Below are positions 14,555 to 49,427 of a stretch of 64,000 nucleotides of DNA, piece by piece. The stretch is taken from the NCBI GenBank assembly GCA_030583805.1, contig CP129476.1:245453-309452 (forward strand), given 5' to 3'. The notes beneath the pieces were generated by a model that had not been told where the DNA came from, did not search any database, and worked only from the letters and a program-made list of their open reading frames with translations. The position numbers and the translations under genes are program-made. Origin of the DNA: Patescibacteria group bacterium (lineage in GTDB: Bacteria; Patescibacteriota; Patescibacteriia; SG8-24; DYFX01). Position 1 is the stretch's first letter, and each line of letters begins with the position of its first letter.

Positions 14555-14590
14555 AATAGCCCTAGGATTTTAACAACAAACACATACACT

Positions 14591-18730: not shown

Positions 18731-18764
18731 ACCAAGCACGTGGGTCGCCCCACACGCTTGCTCA

Positions 18765-18839
18765 TGGCTCCGAGGCTGGGATTCGAACCCAGGACCAATG
18801 GATTAACAGTCCACTGCTCTACCGCTGAGCTACCTCGGA
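18765..18839 (-). tRNA. tRNA-Asn (anticodon GTT)
   Basis: The reverse complement folds as a cloverleaf. Acceptor stem TCCGAGG/CCTCGGA, anticodon loop CTGTTAA, T-loop GGTTCGAATCC, encoded CCA. Confidence 0.85.
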
Positions 18840-28597: not shown

Positions 28598-31512
<2,915 letters not shown>

Positions 31513-31523
<11 letters not shown>

Positions 31524-32731: not shown

Positions 32732-33296
32732 GGGTCGTGGTTCCGAATTGGTGGCCGAGCGTGAGCGTGACGATGGGCGTTCCGGACGAAGAGCCGTTGA
32801 CGTACACCTGGCCGTACGGCGGCGTATAGACGAGATCAAGCGGGGTGCCCGCGCTCGCCGCAGTCAGCCGCACGTTGTTTCCCACCACATACGGCGATGC
32901 TTCGAGCTCCTCTCCGACATCGTACCTCCAATCGCCATCCGTGTCGTAAAAAAGCAGGTAACTCGTGTCAGGCGACGTCGTGAAACGAATCCCGTATCCC
33001 GTCGGCACGCGGCGCTGACACACCGCGCCCGCGCACGTCACGGGAGGATTCTTCGGCTCGCACACATGCAAATTGAAGCTGCCGCCGCTGCAGACGGAAA
33101 CGAGCCTCCCCGACAACGACGACGTCTGCACGGAGCGGATCTGATCGACGAGAATTTCCGAAGCGAGCCGGACTTCCGTGCTGCGCTGGCCGCCTCGGAA
33201 GTTCGCCATCATCATGCCGGTAATCACGCCGATAATCGAAATCGAAAGAAGCAGCTCGACGAGCGTGAATCCCCTAGTACCCAAGGAGCGAGGCAT
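32685..33296 (-). CDS. type IV pilin-like protein
   Basis: RGFTLVELLLSISIIGV prepilin N-terminus. Confidence 0.65.
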   Translation of the reverse strand: MPRSLGTRGFTLVELLLSISIIGVITGMMMANFRGGQRSTEVRLASEILVDQIRSVQTSSLSGRLVSVCSGGSFNLHVCEPKNPPVTCAGAVCQRRVPTGYGIRFTTSPDTSYLLFYDTDGDWRYDVGEELEASPYVVGNNVRLTAASAGTPLDLVYTPPYGQVYVNGSSSGTPIVTLTLGHQFGTTTRHVNIFTLSGKIEHD

Positions 33297-34050
33297 ACGC
33301 GTTCACCACCGGTTGACCGAAGAAAAGAGCGAGGACCGTCGCCGCGCTGAGAAAGGTGCCGAAGGCCATCTGCCCCGACCACTTGGCCTTTCCCGCCGCC
33401 AACAGACTGAGCGCGACCAGCGCGCCGCCGATATAAGCCGCGAACAGCGCCAAAAGCACATGTGGGAAGCCGAGCATCATGCCCATCATCGCGCCGATGC
33501 GGATATCGCCCCCGCCGATCCAACGACCGCGCGAGATCGCATACTGCAGAAGGAAAAAACCGCCGCCGATCGCCGCCGCGCCGAGAAGGCTGAGCGGTTT
33601 GGCGCCGAGAGCGACATTGGCAAGAAACGCGATCGCCGCCGCCGGAAGCGTCACGGAATCAAACACGACCATGTCTCGCAAATCCACGACGAATACGACC
33701 GTGAGGACGGAGATGAAGAACCAATCGCGCAAAAGCACCAGGAGCGTTCCCGATCCGTCCGGACCGAGGAGTGGAGCGCGGAGCACGTATGCCAGCAAAA
33801 ACAGCGCCGCGGTTGAAAACTCAACGGCCGGATATTGCCAGGAAATCGGTTTTTTGCACGAACGGCACTTGCCGCGTAACAGTAGAAAACTGACGAGCGG
33901 CACGAGCTCGCTCGGCCGCAGTATCGTACGGCATTCAGGGCAGTGGGAACGCGAACGCCAGCCCGTCTCGCCGGAACGCAGCCGCCCAATGACGACATTC
34001 AAAAAACTGCCGATTGCGAGTCCAAGGAGTACAACGAGAAAAGCGGTCAT
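33274..34050 (-). CDS. pilD: prepilin peptidase (A24 family)
   Basis: Polytopic membrane protein with zinc-binding CPECRT...CRSCKK and conserved Asp-containing loops. Confidence 0.8.
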   Translation of the reverse strand: MTAFLVVLLGLAIGSFLNVVIGRLRSGETGWRSRSHCPECRTILRPSELVPLVSFLLLRGKCRSCKKPISWQYPAVEFSTAALFLLAYVLRAPLLGPDGSGTLLVLLRDWFFISVLTVVFVVDLRDMVVFDSVTLPAAAIAFLANVALGAKPLSLLGAAAIGGGFFLLQYAISRGRWIGGGDIRIGAMMGMMLGFPHVLLALFAAYIGGALVALSLLAAGKAKWSGQMAFGTFLSAATVLALFFGQPVVNAYASLLGY

Positions 34051-34056
34051 AGAAGC

Positions 34057-34602
34057 TTACAGGCAGGTTCCGTTTCTGAGTCCTGATTGAGTCGCAATAA
34101 TGGCGCCGGCAGAAAGCCCGCTTGAACCGACGCCGCTCTCCAATGTTGCTTGGAGGCAGTAGCCGTTGCACGGAGCGGTCGCGCAGGACGCACCCAAGGC
34201 ATCCGTACTTTGGTACATGTAGCTCGTGCCTCCGGGCGAAGGGTTCGCCGGCACAAGCCCCATGAAGACACGGTTCGCATCGCAGTTCGCCGGCGTCTGG
34301 TCCGGCTTGAAACCCGTCGCGCCCGCACGTTCGCACAAGACGTCCGTCGTAGCCGTCCCGATGACGATCGGCGCCCCGGCGAGCGGATAGCCGGAACCCG
34401 GTTCATAAGAAAGATCCAGCGCCTTTTTGATCTGTGCCAAATCCGATGCGCGTTTCGTGTCTCGCGACCTCGCGCGCGAACTGCCCAAGCTCACGATGGC
34501 GATCATGGCCAAAAGCCCGATAACCGCGATCACGATAAGCAGCTCGACCAACGTGAAGCCGCGATACGGAGAGTTCGGCGCCATAGAAAAACTAGTGGAC
34601 AA
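34057..34602 (-). CDS. type IV pilin
   Basis: RGFTLVELLIVIAVIGLLAMIAIVSL prepilin N-terminus. C-terminal disulfide-bonded D-region. Confidence 0.75.
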   Translation of the reverse strand: MSTSFSMAPNSPYRGFTLVELLIVIAVIGLLAMIAIVSLGSSRARSRDTKRASDLAQIKKALDLSYEPGSGYPLAGAPIVIGTATTDVLCERAGATGFKPDQTPANCDANRVFMGLVPANPSPGGTSYMYQSTDALGASCATAPCNGYCLQATLESGVGSSGLSAGAIIATQSGLRNGTCL

Positions 34603-34672
34603 CGCTCACAGTATAGCATACGCAGGAACAAAAACCGCCCAGCAAAGCTGGGCGGTTTCGTGACATCCGAGC

Positions 34673-35152
<480 letters not shown>

Positions 35153-35206
35153 AGACGAAACGAAAACAAGTCTTAAAAACTTAATTATCCACAGTCTAGC
35201 ACATTT

Positions 35207-35596
35207 TTATTGAGAGCACGAGAGCCCCGTGCGCTCCGCTGTGCAAGAACCGCCGGCAAGCGCCCCGAGCTGGCCTTCCAGGGCGAACTGCAGGCGATAA
35301 TTTTGGCACGGCGTGGCCGAAACGGATCCACAGCCGGACGGCTCGGGGGCGTATCCGAGCGCATCAGCGAGATCGGCGTCGTCGGAGCGCAGGAGATCGG
35401 TACGCTCGGGGTACGAGGCCGTCCGTGCGCGATAGGCCTCGAGCGCCGCTTGCGTTTGCCGGACCAGCGAAACGACGCTCGCGTCACGCGAACGACGCCG
35501 CGTATCGAGCACGCCCAAAACCATCGGCACAGCCAAGACGAGCACGAGGCCTCCGGCAATCAATCCTTCGACGAGCGTGATGCCTTTGGTCTTCAC
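35207..35596 (-). CDS. pilin-like protein
   Basis: KGITLVEGLIAGGLVLVLA prepilin-like N-terminus. Confidence 0.55.
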   Translation of the reverse strand: MKTKGITLVEGLIAGGLVLVLAVPMVLGVLDTRRRSRDASVVSLVRQTQAALEAYRARTASYPERTDLLRSDDADLADALGYAPEPSGCGSVSATPCQNYRLQFALEGQLGALAGGSCTAERTGLSCSQ

Positions 35597-36801
35597 ATCT
35601 GCTGGGCTAGCGTATACATCGGCAAGATGATTGCGGCGACCAGGCTGCCGACCGCAAGACCCATGATCACCATGATGATCGGCTCGATCGCCGTCGACAA
35701 GTTGGCGACCGACGCGTTGATCTCGCGCGTATAAAATTCCGTAAGCCGCGCTAAGACCTGCTGCAATCTTCCCGTTTCTTCGCCGACGGCAATCATCTGC
35801 GTGACCATGTCAGGGATTTCCTTCCGATTCTTCCACACGGTCGTCATGGAGTTACCCGCAGCGACTTCCTGCACGGTTTTTACGAGACCCTCGCGGTACG
35901 TTTCGTTTCCGACAACGCCTGACACCACCTTGAGGCTCGTGACCATATCGACGCCGCCGCCGATCAAGGTCGCAAGGCTGTGCGTGATACGCGTAATGTA
36001 AATTCGGCGGAAGAGCGGCCCGAAAATCGGAACGTGGAGGATCAGGTAATCGATCTTTCTCTTCCCGGCCGGCGTGTGGTATGCGGCGCGGATGCCGAAG
36101 AACAACGCGAGGACGCCGCCGATGACGAGGTACCAGAAGTTTTTAAAGAAGTCGCTGACGCCGATCAGCATGCGCGTCGTGAGCGGCAGCGTGGCGCCGC
36201 TCTCTCGAAGCACGTCCGTCAATTTCGGCACGACGAAAATCATCATGATCGTACCGACCAGGAAAAGCATGGCCATCACGAACGCGGGATACGTCATGGC
36301 GCCCCTGACGCGCTGGCGCAAATCGTAGTCTTTTTCCTCTTGATCGGCCAAATACTGAAGCACTTCATCAAGCTTGCCGGACGTTTCGCCCGAGCGCACC
36401 AGGTTCACGTAAAACGTGTCGAAGACGTGCGGGTATTTGTTGAACGCGTCGGACAGGCGCACGCCACCTTCAACTTCGTTCGCGACGTCAAGCACCATTT
36501 CATGCAGCTTGGGACTCGCGGTCTGGCGCGCGGCCGTTCGCAGTGCACGGACAATCGACACCGAAGCGCTGATCATGACCGAAAGCTGTCGCGAAAAGAC
36601 GACGATATCCTTCGCCGTCACGCGCCTAAACAGCGTAAATTGGCGCGTTGCGAGCGTCGGCGCGTCGCGTTCCGTGAGCGAGAGGGTGTGATACCCGTGC
36701 TCACGCAAAACATCGGCGGCCTGCGCCTCGTTTTCAGCCTCGACGGCACCCTCCAAAACGGTGCCGCGCGAATCTTTTACTTTGTAGCTATAAATCGGCA
36801 T
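35593..36801 (-). CDS. pilC: type IV pilus assembly platform protein PilC (GspF family)
   Basis: Two GspF repeats, three TM segments, about 400 aa. Confidence 0.85.
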   Translation of the reverse strand: MPIYSYKVKDSRGTVLEGAVEAENEAQAADVLREHGYHTLSLTERDAPTLATRQFTLFRRVTAKDIVVFSRQLSVMISASVSIVRALRTAARQTASPKLHEMVLDVANEVEGGVRLSDAFNKYPHVFDTFYVNLVRSGETSGKLDEVLQYLADQEEKDYDLRQRVRGAMTYPAFVMAMLFLVGTIMMIFVVPKLTDVLRESGATLPLTTRMLIGVSDFFKNFWYLVIGGVLALFFGIRAAYHTPAGKRKIDYLILHVPIFGPLFRRIYITRITHSLATLIGGGVDMVTSLKVVSGVVGNETYREGLVKTVQEVAAGNSMTTVWKNRKEIPDMVTQMIAVGEETGRLQQVLARLTEFYTREINASVANLSTAIEPIIMVIMGLAVGSLVAAIILPMYTLAQQM

Positions 36802-36805
36802 GCAG

Positions 36806-37177
36806 TCAGTTCAGCCCCAGAAGATCTCGCAAAGTCCGCGCCACGTCGTCGGCGACCAGGTGTGTCTTCACAAGATAGGTGCGCGCTCCTGTTCGCAGGC
36901 ACCGCTCCGCCTCCTCGGCGCACGGACGTTCCGCAAGCACGACGACGGGGACACGCACGAATTCAGGCGCGCGCTTCAGTCGATCAAGCAGCGACGCGTG
37001 TTCCGCGCCGAGCAGGATCGTATCGGGCCGTTCGCGCAGCGCGGTCTCGAATCCCCGATCGCTGCCGCCCTCGCACACGACGGAAAACCCCTCCGCCTCG
37101 AGGCGGCTGGCGCACGCGCTCGCGAAGAACGCGTCGGCGTCGATCAGCAACACGCGGACGGAGCCTTGAACAAGCAT
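36806..37177 (-). CDS. single-domain response-regulator receiver (REC) protein
   Basis: CheY-like fold (VRVLLIDAD...DTILLG...YLVKT). Sits between pilB and pilC. Confidence 0.55.
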   Translation of the reverse strand: MLVQGSVRVLLIDADAFFASACASRLEAEGFSVVCEGGSDRGFETALRERPDTILLGAEHASLLDRLKRAPEFVRVPVVVLAERPCAEEAERCLRTGARTYLVKTHLVADDVARTLRDLLGLN

Positions 37178-37182
37178 ACCAC

Positions 37183-38928
37183 CTATTCGCGCGCGAGGCG
37201 CAGCACTTCATCGACTGTCGTCGTTCCTTCAAGAACTTTGAGTACGGCGTCTTGCCGCATCGTGATCCAGCCTTGTTTTTTCACCTCTTCCTTGACCTGC
37301 GGGATCGGGAAGCCGCTGTTCATGAGGCGCTGGATTTCAGGCGTGACGCCGATCATCTCGGCAATCACCGTACGGCCGGCGTAGCCCGTATCGCTGCAGC
37401 GCGGGCAACCCGCGCCTTTTTGGAACGGCAACGGGCCGTCGAGCGTGATGCCCGGCGGATAATAGGCGGCGGGAATTTCCTTCAAACTGTCGCGGATCAT
37501 CTGCTGCAAATTCTCCGGCACGTCCGCGGGTCCCTTGCAGTGTTCGCAGATCTTGCGCGCCAAGCGTTGCGCGATCAGCAGGTTCAGCGTGGCGGAAAGC
37601 AAGAACGGCTCGACGCCGAGGTCGATCAGGCGCGGTACCACGCCGATCGCGTCGTTCGTGTGGATCGTGGTCAAAATCAAGTGGCCGGTCAGCGCGGCGT
37701 GCACGGCGAGCTCGCCCGTTTCCTGGTCGCGGATTTCGCCGACCATGATGACGTTCGGGTCCTGGCGCAGGAGCGCGCGGAGGCCGTTCGCGAAACTGAA
37801 ATTGATCTCGGGGCGGATTTGCGACTGGTTGACGCCCGGCAAGAAATATTCGACAGGATCCTCGAGTGTCGAGATGTTGACGCCCTCGTCGTTGATCATG
37901 CTGAGCATCGTAAGCAGCGTCGTCGATTTTCCCGAACCGGTCGGTCCGGTGATCAGCACCATGCCGTGCGGTTTTTTCACCTCTTGCGCGAGCACGTCGC
38001 GGTACTTGTCACGGAAACCGAGCTGCTCGAGCGAAGGTACGCCGGTAGACGTGTCGAGAACACGCATAACAACTTTCTCGTTATCAACGACCGGCAGCGT
38101 GGAAATGCGGAAGTCGATCGCCTTCCCGTTGATCACCTGGGTGATGCGTCCATCCTGCGGGACGCGCGTTTCATCCAATTTCAAGTTGGCCAGCACTTTG
38201 ACGCGCGAGATGACCGAGGAGTGCAGGTAGTTCGGAAGCGTCAGCAACGTGCGCAACACGCCGTCGACGCGGTAACGAACGCGCGTTTCCTTTCCTCGAG
38301 GTTCGATGTGGATGTCGGAGGCTTTCGCTTCGACCGCATAGCGCATGATCACCGAAACGATGCGGGAAACCGGCGCCCCCTTGATAACCTCTTCAATGCG
38401 CGCTTCTTCACCCGGACGCTCTTCTTCCGGCAAACGTTCCTCCTGCGCGGATTCAAGCGCGGTCGCGACTTCTTTCTTCAGCGTGCCGTACTGCTTCAAG
38501 GCGAGCTGAAACGAGCTCGGCGTCGTCACGGCCGGGGCCGCCGTCAGGTTTCGTTCTGCCAACAGGAAGCCGAAGGCTTCGACTGCAGCCGCATTCAACG
38601 GATCGACATACGCGATTTTAAGCGTCGTGCCGTCCAAATCGTAGGCAACGGCTTGGTACGTTTCCGCAACGGACTTCGGAATAATGTTCAGCGCCTCGGG
38701 ATTGAGCTCCATGCCGAGCAGATCGACATATGCCATGCCGAGCGCCTCGGCTTTGGCGCGGGCGATATCCTCTTCCGTGACCAACTTGCGCTCAAGCAGC
38801 GTCCTTTCAAGCGCATCGACTTCCAGGGACGCAAACTCCGTGGACAAGGCCACGAAATCCTCTTGCGAAATTTTTCCTTGGCCTGCCAGGAGTTCCAGGA
38901 GGCCTTTCGAATTCATGTAGCCGGCCAT
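37183..38928 (-). CDS. pilB: type IV pilus assembly ATPase PilB (GspE family)
   Basis: N-terminal GSPII_E N domain. Walker A LITGPTGSGKSTTL, Asp/His boxes, tetracysteine (CEHC...CPRC). Confidence 0.9.
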   Translation of the reverse strand: MAGYMNSKGLLELLAGQGKISQEDFVALSTEFASLEVDALERTLLERKLVTEEDIARAKAEALGMAYVDLLGMELNPEALNIIPKSVAETYQAVAYDLDGTTLKIAYVDPLNAAAVEAFGFLLAERNLTAAPAVTTPSSFQLALKQYGTLKKEVATALESAQEERLPEEERPGEEARIEEVIKGAPVSRIVSVIMRYAVEAKASDIHIEPRGKETRVRYRVDGVLRTLLTLPNYLHSSVISRVKVLANLKLDETRVPQDGRITQVINGKAIDFRISTLPVVDNEKVVMRVLDTSTGVPSLEQLGFRDKYRDVLAQEVKKPHGMVLITGPTGSGKSTTLLTMLSMINDEGVNISTLEDPVEYFLPGVNQSQIRPEINFSFANGLRALLRQDPNVIMVGEIRDQETGELAVHAALTGHLILTTIHTNDAIGVVPRLIDLGVEPFLLSATLNLLIAQRLARKICEHCKGPADVPENLQQMIRDSLKEIPAAYYPPGITLDGPLPFQKGAGCPRCSDTGYAGRTVIAEMIGVTPEIQRLMNSGFPIPQVKEEVKKQGWITMRQDAVLKVLEGTTTVDEVLRLARE

Positions 38929-38934
38929 GCGAAA

Positions 38935-39192
38935 TCAATAGGGTGCAAAAGGGTTTTCACGGCCCATCCGGCCCGGCACGATCGGGAGATCGACGCGCAA
39001 TTCCAGACGCCGATATTCAGGCCGCTCCGTCAGATCGTTCGGGATGCGCGTATCAACCTTGGGCGGGATGTAAGCCGGAGCTTCGGACACGACCGGCGGC
39101 TTGAAAACGAAGAGCGCGAGCACCACCACGATCGCGGCGATCAGGATGATGAGTACGATCAGGAGGATTTTCTGTCGATCAAGCTTCGGCAT
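38935..39192 (-). CDS. small membrane protein (PilP-like position)
   Basis: 85 aa with a single TM helix, downstream of pilO. Confidence 0.4.
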   Translation of the reverse strand: MPKLDRQKILLIVLIILIAAIVVVLALFVFKPPVVSEAPAYIPPKVDTRIPNDLTERPEYRRLELRVDLPIVPGRMGRENPFAPY

Positions 39193-39193: not shown

Positions 39194-39760
39194 TCAAATG
39201 GCTTTCTTCCAAACGTAGGCGCGAAGCGTCAACGTATAACTCGCTCCCGCAGGATTGATGTTCGCGCTGCGCACGTCGAACAAGCGCAGGTTGTCCTGGA
39301 GCGATGACAGGAACAGCTTGAAACGTTCGTAGCTGCCGTGTTGGACGGAGATGGAAATAGCAAGCGCGCCGACGTTCGATACGTCAATGCCGGTCATGTC
39401 GGCAGCGGCGAAGTTCACCGCCGTCAGCTGCAGATCGCTGGCGCGGGCGGCCGCTTCAAGCATTGCGAGGATGCCGGGAACGTCGTCCTCGTGCGGAATC
39501 ATGGTGCGCGCCCGTTCGATATCTTCGAGCGCGTAATTGCTGTACTCGAGAGCCAGCGCATCAAGCTGCTTCAGATACGCCTCCTTCGACGTGCGTTCCT
39601 GATTGAGAACCGCGATACGGTCCGCCTGACGAATACGAGCGACCTGATGACGGAAAACGAATGCGTACCCCAGAAGCAGCAACAGCGCGCAAACGCCAAG
39701 ACTGGACCAGACGAGATGTCGGGCGATCCAGACCATGGGAGTGCTGCGGGAGAAGGACAT
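39194..39760 (-). CDS. pilO: type IV pilus assembly protein PilO-like
   Basis: Single TM helix, coiled coil, periplasmic domain. Operon position after pilN. Confidence 0.6.
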   Translation of the reverse strand: MSFSRSTPMVWIARHLVWSSLGVCALLLLLGYAFVFRHQVARIRQADRIAVLNQERTSKEAYLKQLDALALEYSNYALEDIERARTMIPHEDDVPGILAMLEAAARASDLQLTAVNFAAADMTGIDVSNVGALAISISVQHGSYERFKLFLSSLQDNLRLFDVRSANINPAGASYTLTLRAYVWKKAI

Positions 39761-39763: not shown

Positions 39764-40819
39764 CTATGGCGTGGTTGGAACCGAGGGTGCTGACGCGGTT
39801 TGCGGCTTGTAACGGAAAATCGACGGATCGATCTCGAGCGACATGGAAGCGCGCACGCCTTGAAGAAGATCGTTCTCGCCGATATCAGCCGAGGCTGTTC
39901 CGACGCTGACTTTGCGCACGCGCGCGTCTTGCCGGAACGCGACGATCTGCTTCGCGAGCGTCGTATAGTCGCGCGCCTTGATTTCAAAGCCGAGCGTGCC
40001 GGTTTCAGCGCCCGCAAGGCTTCCAAACTGCACGTCCGGAAGCGCCCGCTCTTCAAGCAGCTTCAACACTTCCGTCCAGTGCGCGTGCGCGTCGAGCACT
40101 CGTGCGGCGGCGCGGGTGAGCGCCTGAAAATCACGCACTGGCGTGAGCTCGGCGTCGCGCGCCGCGATGCGCGCATCGACATCTTGCACGGCTTGGGCAG
40201 CCTCTTGGTTTTTCTTCTCAACCGAAAGTTTTCGCCAATGCAAACCGCCGAAAATCAAAGCATCCACCAGCAAGCCGATAAGGCCGATGATGACGAACGT
40301 GCGCTGACGATGGCGAAGCGCCAGGTCGGACAGTCCAGCCCCTCCATTCGCCGTGATGAGGCTGACACGGAGCGTCCCTCCCTCCTTCCCGCCATCATCC
40401 TGAGGCGGCGGCGGGGGCGCAGGCGGTTTTTTAGGAGGGCCTGGAGGTGACGGTGGCGGCGGGGGCGGGGGCGGGGGCGGAGCAACGGCCTTGATGACCG
40501 GAGGCGGCATCGGCTTAGGTTGCGGAAGCTTGGGAAGCGGGTTTTCGATTTTCTTTGGAGGAACGGCCGTGGCCGGATTCGGCTCTATTTTTTGACTGAA
40601 CAACTTTTCCGTCGGCACGCTCGATTGCTCCTTATCGATGAGTTGCGCCAAAAACGTGCCTCCCAATGAAGGGGCGGCCTGCTTTTCAGGCGGTTCCTGA
40701 GAAGGCACGTGCAGCGTCAAATCCTCGTTGCCAGCTGCCGGCGGACGTTTGGCTTTGCCGTCGCGTGCCGCATCATCGTTTGCGAGCAAATTGATATCGC
40801 TCATATCAATCAATGTCAC
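39764..40819 (-). CDS. pilN: PilN-like protein with long proline-rich N-terminal extension
   Basis: A poly-Pro tract (PPPPPPPPPPSPPGPPKKPPAPPPPP), then a TM helix and a PilN-type coiled-coil/periplasmic domain. Confidence 0.55.
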   Translation of the reverse strand: MTLIDMSDINLLANDDAARDGKAKRPPAAGNEDLTLHVPSQEPPEKQAAPSLGGTFLAQLIDKEQSSVPTEKLFSQKIEPNPATAVPPKKIENPLPKLPQPKPMPPPVIKAVAPPPPPPPPPPSPPGPPKKPPAPPPPPQDDGGKEGGTLRVSLITANGGAGLSDLALRHRQRTFVIIGLIGLLVDALIFGGLHWRKLSVEKKNQEAAQAVQDVDARIAARDAELTPVRDFQALTRAAARVLDAHAHWTEVLKLLEERALPDVQFGSLAGAETGTLGFEIKARDYTTLAKQIVAFRQDARVRKVSVGTASADIGENDLLQGVRASMSLEIDPSIFRYKPQTASAPSVPTTP

Positions 40820-41864
40820 GCATTGCCAAACCTATGGCCGCGCCGAAACGCGGTCCGATCTGGTTTAAAACGGGACGGAGCGCTTCCGGATACACCACGC
40901 GCGCCCAAGGGTCGCCGACATAGGCTCTCAAATTCATCGCCTTTGAGATGTGCTCGGAGAGCCGCGGCAAGAGCGCGCCGCCGCCCGTCAAAATAATCTT
41001 GTCGATGCGCTTGTCCTGATTCGCCTTTTGACCCAAGAACAAGTTGGTCGAATACGTCAGCTCGCTCAGGATCGGCGAAAGTGCTTTTTCAAACGCTTTG
41101 GGAAAACCGCCATCGTACATCGACGCCATGGCCGCGGCGTCAATCTTCATGCTCTCGGCTTGCTCTTCAGACAATCCGAGCGCCGCCACCATTTCCTTGG
41201 TCACGTCGACGCCGCCGCGTGCCACGCTTCGGCTCACGAACGGGATGCCGTTCTCGACAATCAAGATGTTCGTGCGGATCGTACCGATGTCGAGCAGCAA
41301 GGTTGGCGAACGGTCGCGTCCGATCAAGGCGCGGATCATCGCCAGCGCTTCCGTTTCAAGACTGAGCAATTCCAAACCGGCCGCGTTAAAGATATCGACG
41401 TATTTTTTGATCAGCGTCTTGGCCGCGCCCGTGAGCAGGACTTGGACGTACTTTTCATCCGCGGCCGCGCCCGGAACCGCGATCGGTTTCCAATCGACCG
41501 TCATTTCCTCGAGCGGCAGCGGGATGAGTTTCTTCGCTTGCCAGTTGACGGCCTCCTTCAGATCTTCCGCCTTCGCGGTTTTCTGCACGCTGATGATCGA
41601 ACTGAAAACCGAGGCGATCGGGAGAGCGGAAATCGCGCGCTTCGTCGTCGTTTTCGACTTCTTCAGCATCTTCTTCAACAGCTCCACGGTCCTGCCGGGG
41701 TTGTCGAGGTAGTTCTCTTGCGATTCGCCGGGCGCGCGTTCAACAAAGGCGTACGTCACGAGACGCGCACGCCCTTTTTCGTTCATCAACTCGACGAGCT
41801 TGATACCGCCCGCTCCGAAGTCGACGCCGAGATAGCTGGGTTTCGATTGACCGAACAACGCCAT
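40806..41864 (-). CDS. pilM: type IV pilus assembly protein PilM
   Basis: Actin-like ATPase fold (LGVDFGAGGIKLVEL...DIGTIRTNILIV). Confidence 0.85.
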   Translation of the reverse strand: MALFGQSKPSYLGVDFGAGGIKLVELMNEKGRARLVTYAFVERAPGESQENYLDNPGRTVELLKKMLKKSKTTTKRAISALPIASVFSSIISVQKTAKAEDLKEAVNWQAKKLIPLPLEEMTVDWKPIAVPGAAADEKYVQVLLTGAAKTLIKKYVDIFNAAGLELLSLETEALAMIRALIGRDRSPTLLLDIGTIRTNILIVENGIPFVSRSVARGGVDVTKEMVAALGLSEEQAESMKIDAAAMASMYDGGFPKAFEKALSPILSELTYSTNLFLGQKANQDKRIDKIILTGGGALLPRLSEHISKAMNLRAYVGDPWARVVYPEALRPVLNQIGPRFGAAIGLAMRDID

Positions 41865-41919: not shown

Positions 41920-44900
41920 TTATTGCCCCGGCACGGAACGGAAGCCTGGAAGGGAGCGCGTGGCATCGGAGAGCCCCGGTGGCGGGTTCAAGATGACGCG
42001 CGCATCGAATGTTACGCGCTCTGACCCCGTCGTACGTGAGGAAAACTGCCGTTCTAAGCTGAAGTTCTTGGCCACGAAGATGCCGGTCGCGTCGAGTTGC
42101 GAAGTGCCGTTGCCGGTCGAGATCGTCTCTTCCGCAAAGAACGCGCCGACGATGTTGTTCACAGCTCCGTTCACGATGACGTTACCGCCGCCGACGCCGG
42201 AGTCGTTCTTCAGCACGACCCAGCCGACCGAGGCAAGATTCTTCAAGTCGCTTTCATTGCGATCCTGATAGCCGAGCTCGGCGTTGATCGTCAGGTCGCC
42301 TTTCACGATAACCAATCCGTTCGCGCGCGCGGCGCCGCTTGAGTTTTGGAACGTGATCGGCGCGTTGATCGTCAATCCCGACGGGAAATAGTAGACGCCG
42401 CCTGCGAGCTGGTTCGGCACGGTGCTCGGCGACGCGAGCGCGCCATATTTCCCGTTCAGGATACCGTTCACATCGATCGCTCCGAACGATCCGACGTAGT
42501 TCGCTTCACGCCGCGGCTGGACGTACGAAGGGCTCCCGGACAGGCTGCAGCCGCGCTCACTCGTGAAGTTCGTGATCACGCCTCCGGACTGCAGGCAGAA
42601 CGTCGCGTTATAGATCGGGGGAGCTTCGCCGGCTTGCAAGTCGCCAGCGGAATAGATCTGACCCGAGAGCGTTTCAACGAACGGGTCAACGAGCGCTTTG
42701 CAGGAACCCGACAAGCAGTCGCCGTTCGAGAAACAGCAGTTGCCTTCGTCCGTGCCGCCGTCGCACTGGCCCCAGTCGAGGCTGCAGACGCCGACCGAGA
42801 GCGTGTTCGGCGGCTGGCAATCCGCGTCCGCGGAACAGTTCACCGTACACATCGGATGATCGACGACGATGCAAAGATCGGGCGCCGTGCAATCATCGTC
42901 CGTCGCGCAGGCTCCGCCAGGCGTCGGGTCATCCGGCGTCGAACCGCAGTATTTGTACTTGCAACGGCCGACCGCGCTCGCTTCGCATGAATCTCCGACA
43001 CCGTTCGCGTTCGTGTCGCTTTGATTCGGGTTGTAGTAGTTGATGCAGTTGTCGCAGGCCCGCGGCTGCGGAAGGCCGAAATACGTCGGCGTAGGAGGCG
43101 ACGCATAGCCGTTCGGCGTATAGCGTCCTTCCGGAGCGCCGTCATGATCGAAGTCCGCGTCCTTGCACGCGCCGATGCCGAGATCGCCGAGGTCGCACTT
43201 CAGGAAGGCTTGCGCGTTCGAGCGCACCACGTCGCCGCTCGAGTCCGTGCCTTCCACGAAAATCCAATAGCGTCCCGGCGCAAGTCCGGCCGGAACGTTA
43301 TAGACGCCCTGGCAGGTCATCGTATTGCCGATGACGGTCGGCGTCATCGCTACCGTAACCGCTTCGCCGCCGACCCAGTTTTGGTCGTAGACGAACACGC
43401 GGCAGGCGGAAGCGAACGTGCTGAGCGTATCGGTACGGAACTGCGTATTGAGGTTCACCGCGTCGTTGCTGCGATAGGTATGCACGACCGCGCCGTTGAT
43501 GTCGTTGCCAAGTACCAGGTTCTGGGCGACGGAAGGCACGACGTTGATGTTGATCGTCTGCGTCGTGCTCGTCGCGCTCTTATTGGACGCGCCGTCGACC
43601 GCCGCCGTTTCAATTTCGAACGCAGGGCTGTCGTTCACGAACGGTCCGGCCGTCACCATGCAGTTGCCGTCGCCGGAACTCTGCGCTCCGCCATCCAAGC
43701 TGAAATCGCAACGGCAGATGCCGGACGGATCGTTGTTCGGAACGGCCTGGAAACGCACGCTTGCGCCGACGGGAACGTCGACTTTTCCGGAAACGATCCC
43801 TTCGATTTCAACCGCCGGGACAGGCAGCGTCGGCGGCGTATTTTCGTAGACGCGCGTCGACAGCGTCATGTCGCCGAACTCGGCGACGCCCGCATGGTTT
43901 GCGACATAGGAGACGATAAAATCTTCCGGTCCGAGCGGTACGGCCGATGTCGAGGTACAGATCAACGACACGTCGAAATCGGTCACGGTCTCTCCCGAGA
44001 TTTCGTTGATGATGCCGACGGAGGGGTACGGGCTCGTGTACTGCAATTGCGCGGCGCCCGTGCCGGAAAGCGCGCAGTTTGCCGTACCCGCATCGAACGG
44101 AAAAGCGTTCGCGGGATTTACCGCGTCGCCGATAACGATCGTGAGCGACGTAAATGCTCCTGAACCGGTAAAACGAATCTCGTACGGCGCGTTCACGTAC
44201 AAGCGATCGCGATGCGAAACGTTCAGGCTTCCGCCCGGCACGACCGGCGTCAACGTCGTCATGTGAGGAATGTCGGGGCAGCTTGCCGCCAGCGTCCAGC
44301 CTCCCCCGCCCGGCCTGCGCGCGCACTGCACGGCGTCCTGGCAAGCCGTATCGAAACAATCCGTACCTCCGTCGGAATCATTGTCCGCTCCGTCGTGGCA
44401 GGTGACCGCGCCGGATTCCGCGCCGCAGAAATACGGTATGACGCCCGAAGAACCGATCGTGGGGCCGTGGCGCTGCGCCGGCGTCGTGCATCCGGTATCG
44501 CTGCAGTCGACCTGACCGTCCGCGTCGTTATCGAGTCCATCGCCGCAAAAATTCGCGGAATTTTCGGTAGCCGTGCAAACGGCGGCGTCCGTTTCGGTCA
44601 ACGCGTATCTCGCGGGCGCCCCGCACGTCGCGTTCAAGCAGCCGGCGCGGCCGAGTTTCACGCCGGTCCGGCATTGCACGTCGGCGCAGTCGATTGCCGT
44701 ATCAAGATCGTTATCGAGGCTGTCGGAGCACGACAGGAACGTGTAATCCTCCGTCGCCGGAGAAGGTCCGCATTCGCCGAACACGTTTCGGCAGTCGGGA
44801 TCGAGCGCATCCATGAGCGCGTCGCCGTCGTTGTCGATGCCATCGCTGCAAAAATTGAAATAGTACACGGGCAACGGGTCGCCCGTACCGAGCGGACTCG

Positions 44901-46125
44901 GCGGCAGATACGCCTCGAATCCGGCGCAGCGCTGCGGCCCGTCGATCGCGCCGAGACAGTTCGGGTCGGCGCAATCCGTCTCGCTATCAAGATCGTTATC
45001 GAGCCCGTCGAAACACTGCGAAGGCGTGTCGATGAAGGTGCCTGTCGGAACATCGTAGCGCAGACGCTCGTTGACGGTGCACGTCCCCTGCCCTTGGCAG
45101 TCGTAATCGCGGCAATCGACGCCCGTGCCGGCGTTGGCGTCGATGTTTGACGCGTAATCTTGGTCGCGATCGTTGTCGATCGAATCGATGCAGGAGGTCT
45201 CGGTCGCGGCGCAGTCTTGAAAGCCCGTTTTCCAGCAGCCCGTGATGGCCGCGTTGTCGGTGCAATCGATCATGCCGTTACCGTCGTTATCAAACGCGTC
45301 CGCGCAGTTGCCATGCGCCGGTCCGCCGTTTTCCGGACCGCAAAACCTGGTTTCCGCGGCGTTGCCAGGAAGACCGTTGCACTGCGGATCGCTGCAGTCC
45401 GTAAGCCCGTCACCGTCGTTATCGAGACTGTCGTTGCATGTGGACTCCGGAGCCTGGCAAACGCTGGTCGGACCGATGCTCTCACCGAGGCAATCGCTGT
45501 CAGCACAATCAAGGCGGTAATCGAGGTCGTTATCGACCGCGTCGTTGCACTGGCGATAGCTCCCGCCGAACAGCGGGGCGAGAGAAGCGCCTTCGTCGGT
45601 ATTCGTCGGCGAAGCGGCGTCCACGGACACGTTGAACGGCGGCACGATCGTTGCGGCGCCATACTGCGCGAATTCAAGCGTGACGGCGATCACGCCGTCC
45701 GGAGGCGACGCGTAGCGCAGTTCCTGCACGAAATCAAACGTCGCTCCGGCCGTACTGGTTGTCGCCGACCGTTCGATGATCGTATTGCCGATGTTCACCG
45801 TTTGATCCGGCGGCAACGACGTGGTCGGGCTGGGATTTTTCAATGACGTGTTCGAGGAGAACGCCCGGTCAACCGTAATCTTGAAACGCACCGGATTGGG
45901 GCTCGCGAGGTACGGACCGCTCCAAAAACGAATTTTGAGGCTGGAATCGGTCGTGCTGTGGTTTTGCGTCCAGGCATACGAAATCAGCTGGCCGCCGACG
46001 GTAACGGAGCCCGTGCAGACGTTGCCGGCGCAGCTCGGGTCGAGGACGGCCTGGGCTTGCTGCGAGCCGCGCCAGAGCACGAGCGCCAACGCGAGCGCCG
46101 CGACGATAAGAAAGCGCGACTTCAT
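41920..46125 (-). CDS. giant secreted protein with Cys-rich, thrombospondin-type-3-like Asp repeats
   Basis: Signal peptide (MKSRFLIVAALALALVLWRGSQQAQA). Dozens of DxDxDG/DNDxD calcium-binding-like motifs interspersed with Cys pairs. About 1400 aa. Confidence 0.7.
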   Translation of the reverse strand: MKSRFLIVAALALALVLWRGSQQAQAVLDPSCAGNVCTGSVTVGGQLISYAWTQNHSTTDSSLKIRFWSGPYLASPNPVRFKITVDRAFSSNTSLKNPSPTTSLPPDQTVNIGNTIIERSATTSTAGATFDFVQELRYASPPDGVIAVTLEFAQYGAATIVPPFNVSVDAASPTNTDEGASLAPLFGGSYRQCNDAVDNDLDYRLDCADSDCLGESIGPTSVCQAPESTCNDSLDNDGDGLTDCSDPQCNGLPGNAAETRFCGPENGGPAHGNCADAFDNDGNGMIDCTDNAAITGCWKTGFQDCAATETSCIDSIDNDRDQDYASNIDANAGTGVDCRDYDCQGQGTCTVNERLRYDVPTGTFIDTPSQCFDGLDNDLDSETDCADPNCLGAIDGPQRCAGFEAYLPPSPLGTGDPLPVYYFNFCSDGIDNDGDALMDALDPDCRNVFGECGPSPATEDYTFLSCSDSLDNDLDTAIDCADVQCRTGVKLGRAGCLNATCGAPARYALTETDAAVCTATENSANFCGDGLDNDADGQVDCSDTGCTTPAQRHGPTIGSSGVIPYFCGAESGAVTCHDGADNDSDGGTDCFDTACQDAVQCARRPGGGGWTLAASCPDIPHMTTLTPVVPGGSLNVSHRDRLYVNAPYEIRFTGSGAFTSLTIVIGDAVNPANAFPFDAGTANCALSGTGAAQLQYTSPYPSVGIINEISGETVTDFDVSLICTSTSAVPLGPEDFIVSYVANHAGVAEFGDMTLSTRVYENTPPTLPVPAVEIEGIVSGKVDVPVGASVRFQAVPNNDPSGICRCDFSLDGGAQSSGDGNCMVTAGPFVNDSPAFEIETAAVDGASNKSATSTTQTININVVPSVAQNLVLGNDINGAVVHTYRSNDAVNLNTQFRTDTLSTFASACRVFVYDQNWVGGEAVTVAMTPTVIGNTMTCQGVYNVPAGLAPGRYWIFVEGTDSSGDVVRSNAQAFLKCDLGDLGIGACKDADFDHDGAPEGRYTPNGYASPPTPTYFGLPQPRACDNCINYYNPNQSDTNANGVGDSCEASAVGRCKYKYCGSTPDDPTPGGACATDDDCTAPDLCIVVDHPMCTVNCSADADCQPPNTLSVGVCSLDWGQCDGGTDEGNCCFSNGDCLSGSCKALVDPFVETLSGQIYSAGDLQAGEAPPIYNATFCLQSGGVITNFTSERGCSLSGSPSYVQPRREANYVGSFGAIDVNGILNGKYGALASPSTVPNQLAGGVYYFPSGLTINAPITFQNSSGAARANGLVIVKGDLTINAELGYQDRNESDLKNLASVGWVVLKNDSGVGGGNVIVNGAVNNIVGAFFAEETISTGNGTSQLDATGIFVAKNFSLERQFSSRTTGSERVTFDARVILNPPPGLSDATRSLPGFRSVPGQ

Positions 46126-47555
46126 GGACGCGGAGCTTGAGGCGCGGAAGCCGGAGGATGCGGAATGCAGAGGTAGGTGATGCCGCGACAATTGCGGTCG
46201 CCGACCGTCGCCGGAGTTCCGCCGGCGCAATCGCGTTGCATGTTCGCATCGTCATCGATGTTGTCGTAGCATCGCACCTCGACAGGCACGCCGCGCGCCT
46301 TGAGCAGCGTGTACGCCAAGTCGCCTTCGGTATCGCACTGAACGAGCGCTCCGTTCGGATCGCTGTTCAAAAAGTACGCGCGTGACGGATCGGTGTTCGT
46401 GTTGCCGTCAAGGCAATACTTTGCGCGAACGGAATCGACAGCGTTGGCTCCGCCTGCGCCGGAAAACGTCCACGATTCCGGATGCACGGCGATGCGATTC
46501 GATATCACCCTCTGTTCCGATGGGACGCCCTGGATTTCGCAGCCGAACGGCGGATCCGGCGCTTGCGAGCTGAAAGACCAGAGCACGGGATTGCCGAAGG
46601 AGTCGACGACGGCGTCAGACGTCGTGGCAGAGACGGTGTAGTACTCGGTGTAGTCCGTCAGCGCCCGACGAGCGGTGATCGAGGCGGTTTTGGTGCGATA
46701 CGTGTTGTCCGACATGCGGAACACGCACCGCAGGGTTGAACCGGCAGGGGCGGAAAATTGCGTAAACGCGATCGGAATGTCGGTGAGTCGAGAGCCGGTA
46801 TTCGATGCGATCGCCGGCGAGTAGATACCCTCGATCGGCGCCACGGTCAACCAGCCGGAATCAACCCAACCGCTCGTCACGCCCCAAGAACCGTCCGGAC
46901 CGACGCATGACGCGTGCGGTTGGTTGCAGCCGAACTGGAGCCAGCCGTTACCTGTCATGTCGCCGTTGCCGTTCCATGCGTATCCATAAAACTCTCCGGC
47001 CGGCTGTGTCGCCGCCTCATCGAACGTGACGCCATAATCCGCTCCGGGGCATGAATGCGGCGATGCCGTGTTGGTTCCGACATCGGTGCAGTTCAGCGAG
47101 ATCCAGCCGCGGTAGCTCGTGCCGTCGGTTTGGCTGATGACGTACGCCCAGCCATGCAGCTGGTTGTCGTTCGTGTCGTAGCGCGCGCAGGGAACGTAAC
47201 CCGGGCAATAGTGGTCGGCAGCCGAAGCCGGACTCGAAGGCGTTCCGCTGGGCGGCACGCCGGCCGCACCCGTGCAGGTCGATCCGAAACAAATCCAACC
47301 AGCCAAGCTCGACCACGCCCATCCGGAAACATTGCCGAGTTCGTCGATGTCGATGCCGTAGTCTCCGGCCGGGCCGACGCAGCCGGTCGGGTCGGTGTTG
47401 CAGTTCATCGAAATCCAGCCCGTCGTACCAGACCACGCCCAGCCAGCGACGTTATGCGGCGCGGCTTCGGCGGCGCGCGGCGCTGCAAGAACGAAAAACA
47501 ACCCAACGCCGAAAACGAGGGTGGTGAATCTGGCAAAACGCCGAGACATCCCCAT
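46122..47555 (-). CDS. secreted Trp/Cys-rich repeat protein
   Basis: Signal peptide, then four copies of a GWAWS...GWIS(M/L)NC repeat. C-terminal DxD Cys-rich region. Its stop overlaps the start of the giant protein (ATGA). Confidence 0.6.
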   Translation of the reverse strand: MGMSRRFARFTTLVFGVGLFFVLAAPRAAEAAPHNVAGWAWSGTTGWISMNCNTDPTGCVGPAGDYGIDIDELGNVSGWAWSSLAGWICFGSTCTGAAGVPPSGTPSSPASAADHYCPGYVPCARYDTNDNQLHGWAYVISQTDGTSYRGWISLNCTDVGTNTASPHSCPGADYGVTFDEAATQPAGEFYGYAWNGNGDMTGNGWLQFGCNQPHASCVGPDGSWGVTSGWVDSGWLTVAPIEGIYSPAIASNTGSRLTDIPIAFTQFSAPAGSTLRCVFRMSDNTYRTKTASITARRALTDYTEYYTVSATTSDAVVDSFGNPVLWSFSSQAPDPPFGCEIQGVPSEQRVISNRIAVHPESWTFSGAGGANAVDSVRAKYCLDGNTNTDPSRAYFLNSDPNGALVQCDTEGDLAYTLLKARGVPVEVRCYDNIDDDANMQRDCAGGTPATVGDRNCRGITYLCIPHPPASAPQAPRP

Positions 47556-47603
47556 ATGCGAACAGTGTAGCAAATTGACGGCAGCTCCCCTATTCCTCAG
47601 ACT

Positions 47604-49427
47604 GTGAATACTATGACGCAAAAAACCACTGGCGCTGAACGTGTTCGTTGGGACCTCTCATTCCTGTATACGGGTTTTGAAGACCCCGCGCTCAAGCGCG
47701 ACCTGCAAGAGGCCCTGAAGCGCGCCGCTGCATTCCGAAAAACCTATAAGGGCCGTCTCAAGAAGAACCTGGGGGCGGCGCTGCGCTCGTATGCGGACCT
47801 GAGCGCGCGCATCGACAAGATCGGCGTCTACTTGTTTCTCGCGCACAGCACGGACGTCGAAAACGAAAAACTGAACACGGAGCGCGCGGAAGTGTCGCTG
47901 GCGCTGAGCCAAGCGTCGGGAGAGCACCTGACATTCTTCGAGCACGAGCTGGTCGCGCTTTCCGACAAAGACATCGCGCGCCAAGCCAAGAAGGACGCAT
48001 TCCTCACGAAACATCTTCCGTGGATCGCGCAAATCCGCCGTTTCAAGCCGCATCTGCTCAGCGAGGAGGTCGAAGGCGCCTTGGCGAAGCGCGGACCGTT
48101 CGGTCCTGGAGCCTGGAGCGAGTTTTATGACGAGATCGAAGCCGATCTCCGCTTCGCGCTCGACGGCAAGCAGCTCACGCTCACGGAAATTTTGCACGTC
48201 ATGAGCGACGACGCGTCGCGCGAGCGTCGTGCCAAGGCGCTCAAAGCGCTCAATGCGGGTCTGGGCGGAAGCTTTGCCAAGTATTCGGCGCAAACGCTTT
48301 GGCAAACGGCCGGCTCCGGCGCGCTTGAAGACAGGGAGCGCGGCTACAAGCACCCGATGCAGTCGAGGAACATGTCGAACCGCGTCCCAGACAAGGTGGT
48401 GGAAGCGCTTCACGCTTCGGTCACGGAAATCGGCGGCCCGCTCGCCAGGCGCTGGTACAAACTCAAGGCCAAACTGCTCGGCCTCGAGCGGCTGCGCTGG
48501 AGCGACAGGAACGCGCACCTCCCGTTTGAAGACCGCAGCCTCGTGCCGTTCGACGTCGCGCAGCACGAGATCGTGCTTCCGGCCTATGAAAGTTTCAGTC
48601 CGACGCTCGCGAAGCTGATTCGCGAGGAGCTCGTGGCAAAAAAGCGCATCGACGCGCCGGCCGGGCCGAACCGCGAGAGCGGTGCTTACTGCATGTCGTT
48701 CGTCATGCCCGACGGCACGCCGATTTCGCTCAACTTCCTGAACTATCTCGGTTCGAAGCGCGACGTCATGACGATTGCACATGAAGAAGGGCATGCGGTG
48801 CACGGCCTCTTGGCCGGCAAGGCGCAAGGCGGCCTCCAATCGCATGCGCCGATGGCCTATGCCGAAACCGCTTCCGTCTTCGGCGAGATGACGACGTTCC
48901 GTTTCCTGCGCGAACGTTTGGCGAAAAACGGCACCGCACAGGAACAGCTCGCGCTCGTCGCCGGCAAGATCGACGACATGCTGAATACCGTCGTCCGCCA
49001 GATCAGTTTTTCGAACTTCGAACGCAAGCTGCACGGTGCCGGAAAAAAAATGGCGCCATCCGACCTCGACGCGATCTGGATGGACGTCACGCGCGAACTC
49101 TATGGAAAAAACGGCGACGTTTTCGACTACGCCGACATGGAACACCTCTGGGCGTACATCGGGCATTTCCACCGGCCGTTCTACGTCTATAGCTACGCCT
49201 TCGGAGAACTCCTGACGCAGAGCCTCTACGCGCGCAAGGACGCCTACGGCAAGAAATTCGAACCGTTGTATCTCGATCTCTTGCGCGCCGGATCAACCAA
49301 AGACGCCGTCGGCCTCATGAAACCGTTCGGCCTCGATCCGAGGAAGCCCGATTTCTGGAGCGAAGGACTGAAGAACAGCCTTGGCGCGCTCGTTACGGAA
49401 GCGGAGCGGCTTGCGAAAAAACTGTAG
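47604..49427 (+). CDS. pepF: oligoendopeptidase F (M3B family)
   Basis: HEEGHAVH zinc motif (HExxH) with a downstream Glu. Length about 607 aa. Confidence 0.85.
   Translation: MNTMTQKTTGAERVRWDLSFLYTGFEDPALKRDLQEALKRAAAFRKTYKGRLKKNLGAALRSYADLSARIDKIGVYLFLAHSTDVENEKLNTERAEVSLALSQASGEHLTFFEHELVALSDKDIARQAKKDAFLTKHLPWIAQIRRFKPHLLSEEVEGALAKRGPFGPGAWSEFYDEIEADLRFALDGKQLTLTEILHVMSDDASRERRAKALKALNAGLGGSFAKYSAQTLWQTAGSGALEDRERGYKHPMQSRNMSNRVPDKVVEALHASVTEIGGPLARRWYKLKAKLLGLERLRWSDRNAHLPFEDRSLVPFDVAQHEIVLPAYESFSPTLAKLIREELVAKKRIDAPAGPNRESGAYCMSFVMPDGTPISLNFLNYLGSKRDVMTIAHEEGHAVHGLLAGKAQGGLQSHAPMAYAETASVFGEMTTFRFLRERLAKNGTAQEQLALVAGKIDDMLNTVVRQISFSNFERKLHGAGKKMAPSDLDAIWMDVTRELYGKNGDVFDYADMEHLWAYIGHFHRPFYVYSYAFGELLTQSLYARKDAYGKKFEPLYLDLLRAGSTKDAVGLMKPFGLDPRKPDFWSEGLKNSLGALVTEAERLAKKL

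Follow-up and report, generated by a model that had tools for sequence, protein, structure and literature searches.

In the Patescibacteria (the candidate phyla radiation, CPR), which are ultra-small bacteria, type IV pili are believed to play a key part in host finding, attachment and DNA uptake. Among described type IV pilus (T4P) systems, the closest parallel to the genes reported here is PilY1/PilC of Pseudomonas, Neisseria and Myxococcus. These are large non-pilin proteins, exported by the Sec pathway and encoded inside the T4P cluster, that have a conserved C-terminal domain, a variable N-terminus, an involvement of calcium and a proposed role in attachment. We analyzed two co-oriented genes, ProtA and ProtB, in a 64,000-nucleotide stretch of a Patescibacteria genome (GenBank contig CP129476.1, positions 245,453 to 309,452; hereafter the window), where they lie directly 5' of the pilus genes pilM, pilN and pilO. 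We conclude that the pair are the halves of a lineage-specific extracellular protein, which provides the first cistron or cistrons of the Patescibacteria T4P operon.

ProtA and ProtB share the listed properties with PilY1/PilC. However, the likeness is one of function and not of homology. There are two chains here, and they are encoded at the opposite end of the cluster from the minor pilins, before pilM, although within the same co-oriented cluster. The C-terminal domain is predicted to be beta-solenoid-like and carries an NPPPG motif, and no match to the PilC/PilY1 beta-propeller domain was found by Pfam in ProtA, ProtB or 17 C-terminal domains of the family, or among PDB sequences.

Pilus experiments have so far been confined to the Saccharibacteria, in which pilins or a propeller protein carry out host binding (PMC12206443, PMC9894109). 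In the Parcubacteria-type lineages, which are much larger, the family described here, which we call the NPPPG family, stands at the head of the pilus operon. It is a tangible candidate for the component, still missing, that recognizes the host or crosses the envelope.

Two genes and their single-chain relatives

Scanning one genome per GTDB species with a profile of the ProtB C-terminal domain (C-domain) identified 130 relatives, and 80 loci were retrieved, each from a different assembly. The lengths of the family proteins are bimodal, at 450-725 amino acids (aa) versus 1290-1780 aa. The short form, found at about 52 loci, is a single chain consisting of a signal peptide, GW repeats, zero to five acidic repeats and the C-domain. 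The long form, found at about 23 loci, lacks the GW repeats and has a separate ProtA-like gene upstream, often with the same 4-nt overlap that joins the two genes in the window. A 665-aa protein from a complete Uhrbacteria chromosome (locus L033, 4852-6849) matches both the GW domain of ProtA (36% identity, E=3e-24) and the C-domain of ProtB (36% identity, E=8e-44), a Rosetta-stone relation.

Since most relatives combine GW repeats, acidic repeats and C-domain in one chain, the pair in the window is a split and expanded version of one gene. ProtA ends in one acidic repeat and the array of ProtB follows a new signal peptide and N-terminal domain, which places the break in the repeat region. ProtA retained the GW module and ProtB the C-domain; ProtB in addition gained a signal peptide of its own, an N-terminal domain, nine acidic repeats, three immunoglobulin (Ig)-like domains and a Cys-rich segment resembling thrombospondin type 3 (TSP3) repeats. 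From its narrower distribution we infer that the long form is the derived state. The existence of split and fused forms predicts a ProtA-ProtB complex. An earlier note on this DNA, made from the sequence alone, does not mention the split. At one exceptional locus (L004, 3890-9745) the ProtB homologue is preceded by two secreted, Cys-rich acidic-repeat proteins of non-GW type: a 708-aa protein containing 41 Cys, and a 1165-aa protein containing 76 Cys that Pfam TSP_3 matches.

The C-domain that defines the family is about 260 aa long and follows the pattern …YDGRxxxNPPPG…. Family members carry the motifs NAT[YF]C and GSE…[YF]D[GA]R…NPPPG…LP at the extreme C-terminus, as ProtB does within residues 1141-1401, and we offer [YF]D[GA]R…NPPPG at the C-terminus, beside pilM, as a search signature. 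An exhaustive profile search identified 527 clusters (at 50% identity) with this domain, in proteins that range in length from 450 to 2459 aa, and it is C-terminal in every one; a word-indexed profile search returned only 15 matches. The N-terminal architectures vary and include PKD, Beta_helix, DUF2341 and CHB_HEX_C domains. Thirty-five columns are invariant in an alignment of 17 diverse members. In the AlphaFold2 (AF2) model of ProtB the predicted local distance difference test score (pLDDT) of the C-domain is mostly 82-97, and short strands recur in threes, which suggests a beta-solenoid. The domain has no match in Pfam, in which the 17 C-domains were scanned, or among PDB sequences. No published account of the family came to light in literature searches on the name of the acidic repeat, on DUF7305 and on large or Cys-rich proteins beside pilM in Patescibacteria. 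Proteins with the NPPPG domain appear to constitute an undescribed family that carries no domain annotation.

The earlier note had reported two co-oriented open reading frames (ORFs) directly 5' of the pilus genes and coupled by an ATGA, and we find both on the minus strand with the overlap at 46122-46125, the ProtB ATG (46125-46123) lying over the ProtA TGA (46124-46122). It had described the proteins as giant, as 478 and about 1400 aa long, and as rich in Cys, Asp and Trp. The larger figure agrees with the 1401 aa of ProtB, whereas ProtA has 477 aa and is not giant. Both proteins are rich in Cys (18 residues, 3.8%, in ProtA; 68 residues, 4.9%, in ProtB), and ProtB is 9.1% Asp, but the enrichment in Trp applies to ProtA alone (3.1% versus 0.6% in ProtB). 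The pI of the mature chain is about 4.45 for ProtA and about 4.05 for ProtB. A 499-aa form of ProtA extended to a TTG start is unsupported, as the homologues are 470-477 aa long at 100% coverage (50-86% identity). Full-length homologues of ProtB have 1399-1457 aa, with identity down to about 31%. The best matches of the pair are in Patescibacteria metagenome-assembled genomes (MAGs); in one of these, labelled 'Candidatus Paceibacter', identity is about 70%. Within the window the GW and acidic repeat motifs are confined to ProtA and ProtB in all six frames.

The signal peptides noted earlier on both proteins are borne out by N-termini with an n-region and an h-region that appear to be of the Sec type. 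Residues 4-24 of ProtA, within the signal peptide, are helical in the AF2 model, and conservation of Ala-31, at position -1, reaches 90% or more across 40 homologues. A prepilin-like N-terminus was rejected: ProtA, ProtB and 23 short-form relatives are of the Sec type and lack the prepilin motif, in which F/M-x-x-x-E follows the Gly at the cleavage site, and Pfam finds no N_methyl motif, and with it no class III pilin signal, in ProtA or ProtB. Scans of both proteins with Pfam and NCBIfam returned only NF033662, the NCBIfam model named for the acidic double-disulfide repeat, and a sub-threshold match to Big_5.

Table 1. Positions of the gene pair, its predicted domains and the pilus genes in the window
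Feature	Position	Strand	Residues	Description or basis
ProtA gene	46122-47555	minus		477 aa, starting at the ATG of MGMSRRF; encodes a signal peptide, a GW repeat domain, an Ig-like sandwich and a Cys-rich tail
ProtA signal peptide, putative Sec type	47463-47555	minus	1-31	Cleavage between AEA and A; read from sequence
ProtA GW repeat domain	46866-47453	minus	~35-230	Four units of ~40-55 aa; motif and AF2 model
ProtA Ig-like beta-sandwich	46476-46793	minus	~255-360	AF2 strands 259-357
ProtA single acidic disulfide repeat, C-terminal	46161-46283	minus	~425-465	Motif CYDNIDDDANMQRDC
ProtB gene	41920-46125	minus		1401 aa from MKSRFLIV
ProtB signal peptide, putative Sec type	46048-46125	minus	1-26	Cleavage between AQA and V; read from sequence
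ProtB N-terminal domain	45556-46047	minus	~27-190	Specific to the long form
ProtB nine acidic double-disulfide repeats	44326-45555	minus	~191-600	NF033662 and 7PLP profile matches
ProtB three tandem Ig-like beta-sandwich domains	43186-44268	minus	~620-980	AF2 pLDDT mostly 93-97
ProtB Cys-rich region with one TSP3-like repeat	42706-43185	minus	~1023-1048 (repeat)	ACDNCINYYNPNQSDTNANGVGDSCE; profile match to COMP
ProtB beta-rich C-terminal domain	41923-42705	minus	~1141-1401	Ends …FDARVILNPPPGLSDATRSLPGF…; defines the family
pilM	40806-41864	minus		PilM_2, E=4e-42
pilN-like gene	39764-40819	minus		Position; N-terminal INLL motif, Pro-rich linker, transmembrane segment
pilO	39194-39760	minus		PilO, E=5.3e-5
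85-aa membrane protein	38935-39192	minus		Between pilO and pilB; one transmembrane segment, C-terminal GRENPF
Remaining T4P cluster	30678-38928	minus		pilB, receiver-domain protein, pilC, two pilins, pilD, four ORFs

The GW repeat domain of ProtA consists of four units of the pattern YGxD…GWAWS…GW[IL]xxxC, the number given in the earlier note; they lie at residues 38, 78, 135 and 191 and are followed by a degenerate fifth near residue 234. Each unit is a three-stranded beta-meander in the AF2 model, and W41, G46, W47, G78, W81, G86, W87, G135, W136, G150, W151, W194, G204 and W205 are invariant in ProtA homologues. The repeat has no match in Pfam, NCBIfam or PDB; the AF2 model has no PDB match at E<0.01 in Foldseek, and a ProtA family profile found nothing significant among PDB sequences. 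Aromatic beta-hairpin repeats that bind the cell wall include the choline-binding CW_binding_1 repeats and the Listeria GW modules. ProtA resembles these in its short beta-repeats with conserved Gly-Trp or aromatic residues and in being secreted with no covalent anchor, and the likeness suggests that it may bind wall glycopolymers non-covalently. It is an analogy only: no Pfam or Foldseek match links them, and the three-stranded units of ProtA, at 40-55 aa, are longer.

In the Ig-like sandwich of ProtA, residues 260-310 have a pLDDT of mostly 90-96. The Big_5 match in Pfam is weak and sub-threshold (E=0.047), and Foldseek gives local matches of the Ig/FN3 type only. The motif of the C-terminal acidic unit spans residues 429-463, and NF033662 matches residues 425-444 at E=0.0021 and 17.8 bits, below the 41-bit cut-off. 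The model as a whole (mean pLDDT 74.8) consists of the signal helix, the beta-meander repeats, the Ig-like sandwich and the Cys-rich tail.

The N-terminal domain of ProtB is kept among long-form homologues by alignment consensus and tblastn, and tblastn finds no match to it in short-form loci. The acidic units that follow have the pattern CxDxxDNDxDxxxDCxDxxC, with nine D[ND]DxD units and flanking Cys at residues 193-600. NF033662 matches ProtB in eight stretches with 159.3 bits (cut-off 41; E=1.2e-47), which assigns the units to this model; the model names a repeat module and not a protein function, and repeats of this type also occur in proteins of Myxococcota, Woesearchaeota and Nanoarchaeota. 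A profile built from 67 homologues aligns with the teneurin-4 C-rich domain (PDB 7PLP, E=7.8e-6). In the solved structure of that domain, eight acidic residues and one Asn coordinate three calcium ions, with TSP3 geometry at two of the three sites (PMC9058538). We scored the ProtB repeats against this framework (E-8, D-3, D0, N+1, D+2, D+4, D+8, D+11 and D+13, with Cys at -5, +9 and +14). All nine copies keep five to seven of the eight acidic ligand positions together with Asn+1, and six of the nine have all three framework Cys. ProtB thus differs from teneurin, which has one copy within a YD-shell adhesion protein, in carrying nine copies in tandem, of which several miss one Cys or one to three ligands. 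Judging from these conserved positions, the ProtB repeats probably bind calcium, and the protein would place tandem teneurin-type three-calcium domains in a bacterial surface machine.

The three Ig-like domains of ProtB match adhesin stalks in Foldseek (3lso, AgI/II, SiiE, GhpA and MpIBP, at E=1e-9 to 1e-5), among them the Marinomonas ice-binding adhesin and Antigen I/II. The AF2 model of residues 601-1401 has a mean pLDDT of 85.4. Like the calcium-dependent SiiE/MpIBP/LapA-type adhesins and the Gram-positive Antigen I/II stalks, ProtB has tandem Ig-like sandwiches; its pI of about 4 makes it acidic, and calcium probably stiffens it. Unlike these giant adhesins, it has three Ig domains only, no RTX/type 1 signal and no LPXTG, and it is apparently exported by Sec and tied to a pilus operon.

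Confidence of the AF2 model is low in the Cys-rich region between the Ig-like domains and the C-domain. A profile match to COMP (3fby) was obtained at E=1.1e-6, with individual stretches that are weak (i-Evalue at least 0.26), and Pfam TSP_3 (PF02412) does not match ProtB even at E<=1, so ProtB is not assigned to the TSP3 family. The unit ACDNCINYYNPNQSDTNANGVGDSCE fits the TSP3 consensus, with Asp-to-Asn substitutions, and is present in a single copy. The resemblance to TSP3 repeats, as in COMP and TSP-1/2, that the earlier note had seen throughout the larger protein therefore applies to this unit, whereas the nine repeats nearer the N-terminus are of the NF033662/teneurin C-rich type. Similarly, its description of the repeat families as unusual for bacteria suits the GW repeat, which is matchless in the databases, but not the acidic repeat, which has an NCBIfam model and occurs in other prokaryotes as well.

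Linkage to the pilus operon

The start of pilM lies no more than 300 nt past the C-domain stop codon in 70 of the 75 loci (about 93%) that have at least 1.5 kb of downstream sequence. In many short-form loci the spacing is 2-8 nt, which implies co-translation with pilM. The association of homologues with T4P genes, on which the earlier note had made its proposal depend, thus extends down to about 30% identity, and the possibility it had raised that homologues are never linked to pilus genes is contradicted. ProtB homologues at 29-35% identity in four MAGs lie directly upstream of a cluster in the order pilM, pilN, pilO, a small gene, pilB, pilC, pilin and pilD, and a family member with a different N-terminus (P0290) likewise adjoins pilM. 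The link is also supported by the extracytoplasmic nature of the proteins, a property of the outer parts of the pilus machine. Compared with locus L011, ProtA is 68% and ProtB 64-74% identical, and PilN, PilO and PilC are 61%, 61% and 69% identical; the pair diverge at about the pace of these pilus proteins.

One short-form subfamily of 453-477 aa, to which locus L053 belongs, has no acidic repeats, an N-terminus of the form ACxFHN[IV][ST]G and extra genes before pilM. At L053 itself ClpB lies upstream, and the segment inserted before pilM (6880-10826) encodes an 898-aa protein without a Pfam match, a 196-aa protein and signal peptidase I. The titles of the 80 loci are mostly those of Patescibacteria (Uhrbacteria, Kuenenbacteria, Falkowbacteria, Paceibacter and Parcubacteria), the others apparently being placeholders. 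About 30 of the 80 are titled 'uncultured Gammaproteobacteria bacterium', yet their gene content and nearest relatives are Patescibacteria-like and these labels are apparently placeholders or wrong. One locus (L078) belongs to a bin labelled 'Vicinamibacterales', probably through contamination during binning.

In the window the gap between ProtB and pilM is 55 nt, with no terminator-like site on the minus strand. From pilM through pilC successive genes either overlap or are separated, in both cases by 1-14 nt. Together with the ATGA overlap, this spacing is consistent with one operon, in which ProtA and ProtB are apparently co-transcribed and translationally coupled. A sigma-70 promoter scan of 38.8-47.8 kb gave no site, although such a scan is uninformative for this phylum. 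The remaining cluster was assigned from the Pfam families T2SSE, Response_reg, T2SSF, N_methyl and Peptidase_A24. The four ORFs after pilD comprise two N_methyl-positive minor pilins (32685-33296 and 31513-32118) and two unmatched ORFs, and ligA closes the cluster.

The pilN-like protein is not matched by Pfam PilN. It has a Pro-rich linker of about 100 aa, with the run PPPPPPPPPP, between the INLL PilM-binding motif and the transmembrane segment. The slot after pilO, occupied in the window by the 85-aa membrane protein, is held by genes for 89-115-aa proteins at L001-L004 and L086. In view of the R[DN]PF motif of PilP, this protein may be a minimal PilP-like adaptor or a remnant of PilP.

On the other side of the pair, a gene for M3 oligoendopeptidase F (pepF; 47604-49427, plus strand) is divergent from ProtA, with about 50 nt between the start codons. 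It separates ProtA from the genes for RNase H, RecJ and LepA, and at L001-L003 the order LepA-RecJ-RNaseH-ProtA-ProtB is unbroken.

Possible functions

We tentatively favor a role for ProtA and ProtB as a tether or adhesin that works with the pilus and resembles PilY1 in function, and regard its chances as a little short of even. It is favored because the C-domain does not vary, in contrast to the outward parts, which differ among members and carry modules of the adhesion type. Both chains, with their 18 and 68 Cys, would be exported by Sec and then oxidised. Calcium would load the acidic repeats, which together with the Ig domains would form a stiff acidic stalk. The C-domain would dock the assembly to the pilus machine, either at a complex of the tip and minor pilins or at the periplasmic complex of PilN, PilO and the 85-aa protein. 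Binding to a glycan or cell-wall surface, of a host or of the cell itself, would fall to the GW module with its aromatic residues and to the N-terminal parts that vary.

Several observations weigh against this role. Contact between the pair and the pilus is something we infer. The close adjacency to pilM is broken at five of the 75 loci, four of which (L030, L042, L049 and L053) have an insert of 1-5 kb while the fifth (L075) has no detectable pilM. An upstream block of RecJ and RNase H, with or without LepA, is conserved in 45 of 62 loci, and part of the adjacency to pilM could be plain genome collinearity; because gene order is conserved in general here, adjacency alone overstates the functional link. 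PilY1-type genes normally sit with the minor pilins and not before pilM. The near-fixed length of the long form (1399-1457 aa), its nine repeats and its slow divergence, similar to that of PilN and PilO, are more in keeping with a structural part of the machine than with a fast-evolving adhesin. In addition, Foldseek searches of ProtB residues 601-1401 against PDB and BFVD were swamped by tandem-Ig matches and left the C-domain fold unmatched.

The main rival to a tether or adhesin is a structural part of the envelope, a fixed-length strut or collar stiffened by calcium that would guide the pilus through the wall and S-layer and substitute for PilP-PilQ, and would not serve to bind a host. Patescibacteria of this kind lack an outer membrane. 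The constancy of length and repeat number in the long form favors such a strut, as do its divergence at the rate of PilN, PilO and PilC and its position at the head of pilMNO, the 80 loci each coming from a different assembly. Pfam identifies no secretin gene at the pilus locus, and PilQ is reported to be absent from CPR (PMC6744442). The 85-aa protein, as a possible PilP remnant, would also fit this role. However, N-terminal architecture and length (450-2459 aa) vary widely across the family, with modules of the glycan-binding or adhesion type, and neither ProtA nor ProtB has a membrane anchor after signal cleavage or a Secretin, PilP or peptidoglycan-binding domain in Pfam or NCBIfam, and we consider this role somewhat unlikely. 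We also consider it unlikely that the pair act independently of the pilus mechanism, as a common type of surface adhesin or as a cell-surface coat, their position reflecting frozen gene order in small collinear genomes. RecJ, RNase H and LepA have no functional relation to pili and are nevertheless the conserved neighbors described above, the Ig-like stalk and calcium-binding-type repeats are generic adhesin modules, and GW-repeat domains are also present in other Patescibacteria proteins alongside PKD and Ig domains. The C-domain, by contrast, is found only at this type of locus among those examined, the family stays linked to pilM even where the upstream block is missing or altered (in the window, with its divergent pepF, and at L004, L053 and L086), and the 2-8-nt spacing points to co-translation.

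It is very unlikely that the C-domain has enzymatic activity, such as that of a beta-helix lyase or hydrolase acting on glycans, which would open the cell's own wall or that of a host for the pilus, with the rest of the protein as a targeting stalk. The predicted beta-solenoid-like fold, a set of invariant polar residues (D89, Y157, S170, R230, S234, E240, D245, R247 and D258 in the domain alignment) and additional Beta_helix/NosD regions in some family members are compatible with it. Against these stand the lack of a match to any enzyme family in Pfam, NCBIfam or PDB sequences, and the many other invariant residues that are Gly, Pro or Cys, as is typical of structural constraint; the sub-threshold Pfam matches of the 17 C-domains are to putative adhesive beta-solenoid families (pAdhesive_15, E=0.009; DUF7305, E=0.07). 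A misassembly of the repeats, which the earlier note had named as a danger to its proposal, or an annotation artefact is a concern with a repetitive protein in a region of about 62% G+C, which is prone to long spurious ORFs, many of them on the opposite strand. Collapsed or expanded repeats are ruled out by the divergence of the repeat copies, which are 60-80% identical as DNA and form no tandem array (TRF finds two short 9-nt repeats only), and by independent assemblies that yield ProtB-type proteins of 1399-1406 aa at 69-91% identity. Across dozens of independent assemblies the proteins are collinear and of the same length at 50-91% identity, and the AF2 models are confident; an artefact is effectively refuted.

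A broader proposal, which we regard as possible but doubtful, is that the NPPPG family is an unrecognised core extracellular subunit of the pilus machine of Paceibacteria/ABY1-type bacteria. As a strut of defined length, stiffened by calcium, it would either cap the pilus or form the part that crosses the wall and S-layer in place of PilP-PilQ. The GW module would then represent a new fold for binding glycans or the wall and would determine which host cell the episymbiont attaches to. If the proteins are instead a merely co-located adhesin, the result is a useful annotation and no surprise.

Other features of the window

An island of low G+C content (13253-18839; 0.46 versus about 0.60) adjoins a tRNA-Asn gene (18765-18839, minus strand). 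It contains a serine recombinase gene (13253-14554, plus strand) and a complete Gabija pair identified by PADLOC, consisting of the UvrD-like helicase GajB (14591-16528, minus strand; E=2.9e-236) and the OLD-family ATPase/TOPRIM protein GajA (16474-18576, minus strand; E=3.2e-287). We regard the island as a probable mobile defence element that has integrated into this CPR genome.

A LOOT RNA (Rfam RF03000) is present at 10655-10790 on the minus strand, where it matches over the full model length with 64.9 bits against a gathering score of 46.4. Two further proteins of the window are probably located at the surface. One has 833 aa and an M23 peptidase domain (6416-8917, minus strand), and the other has 667 aa and a Big_5 Ig-like domain (18932-20935, plus strand).

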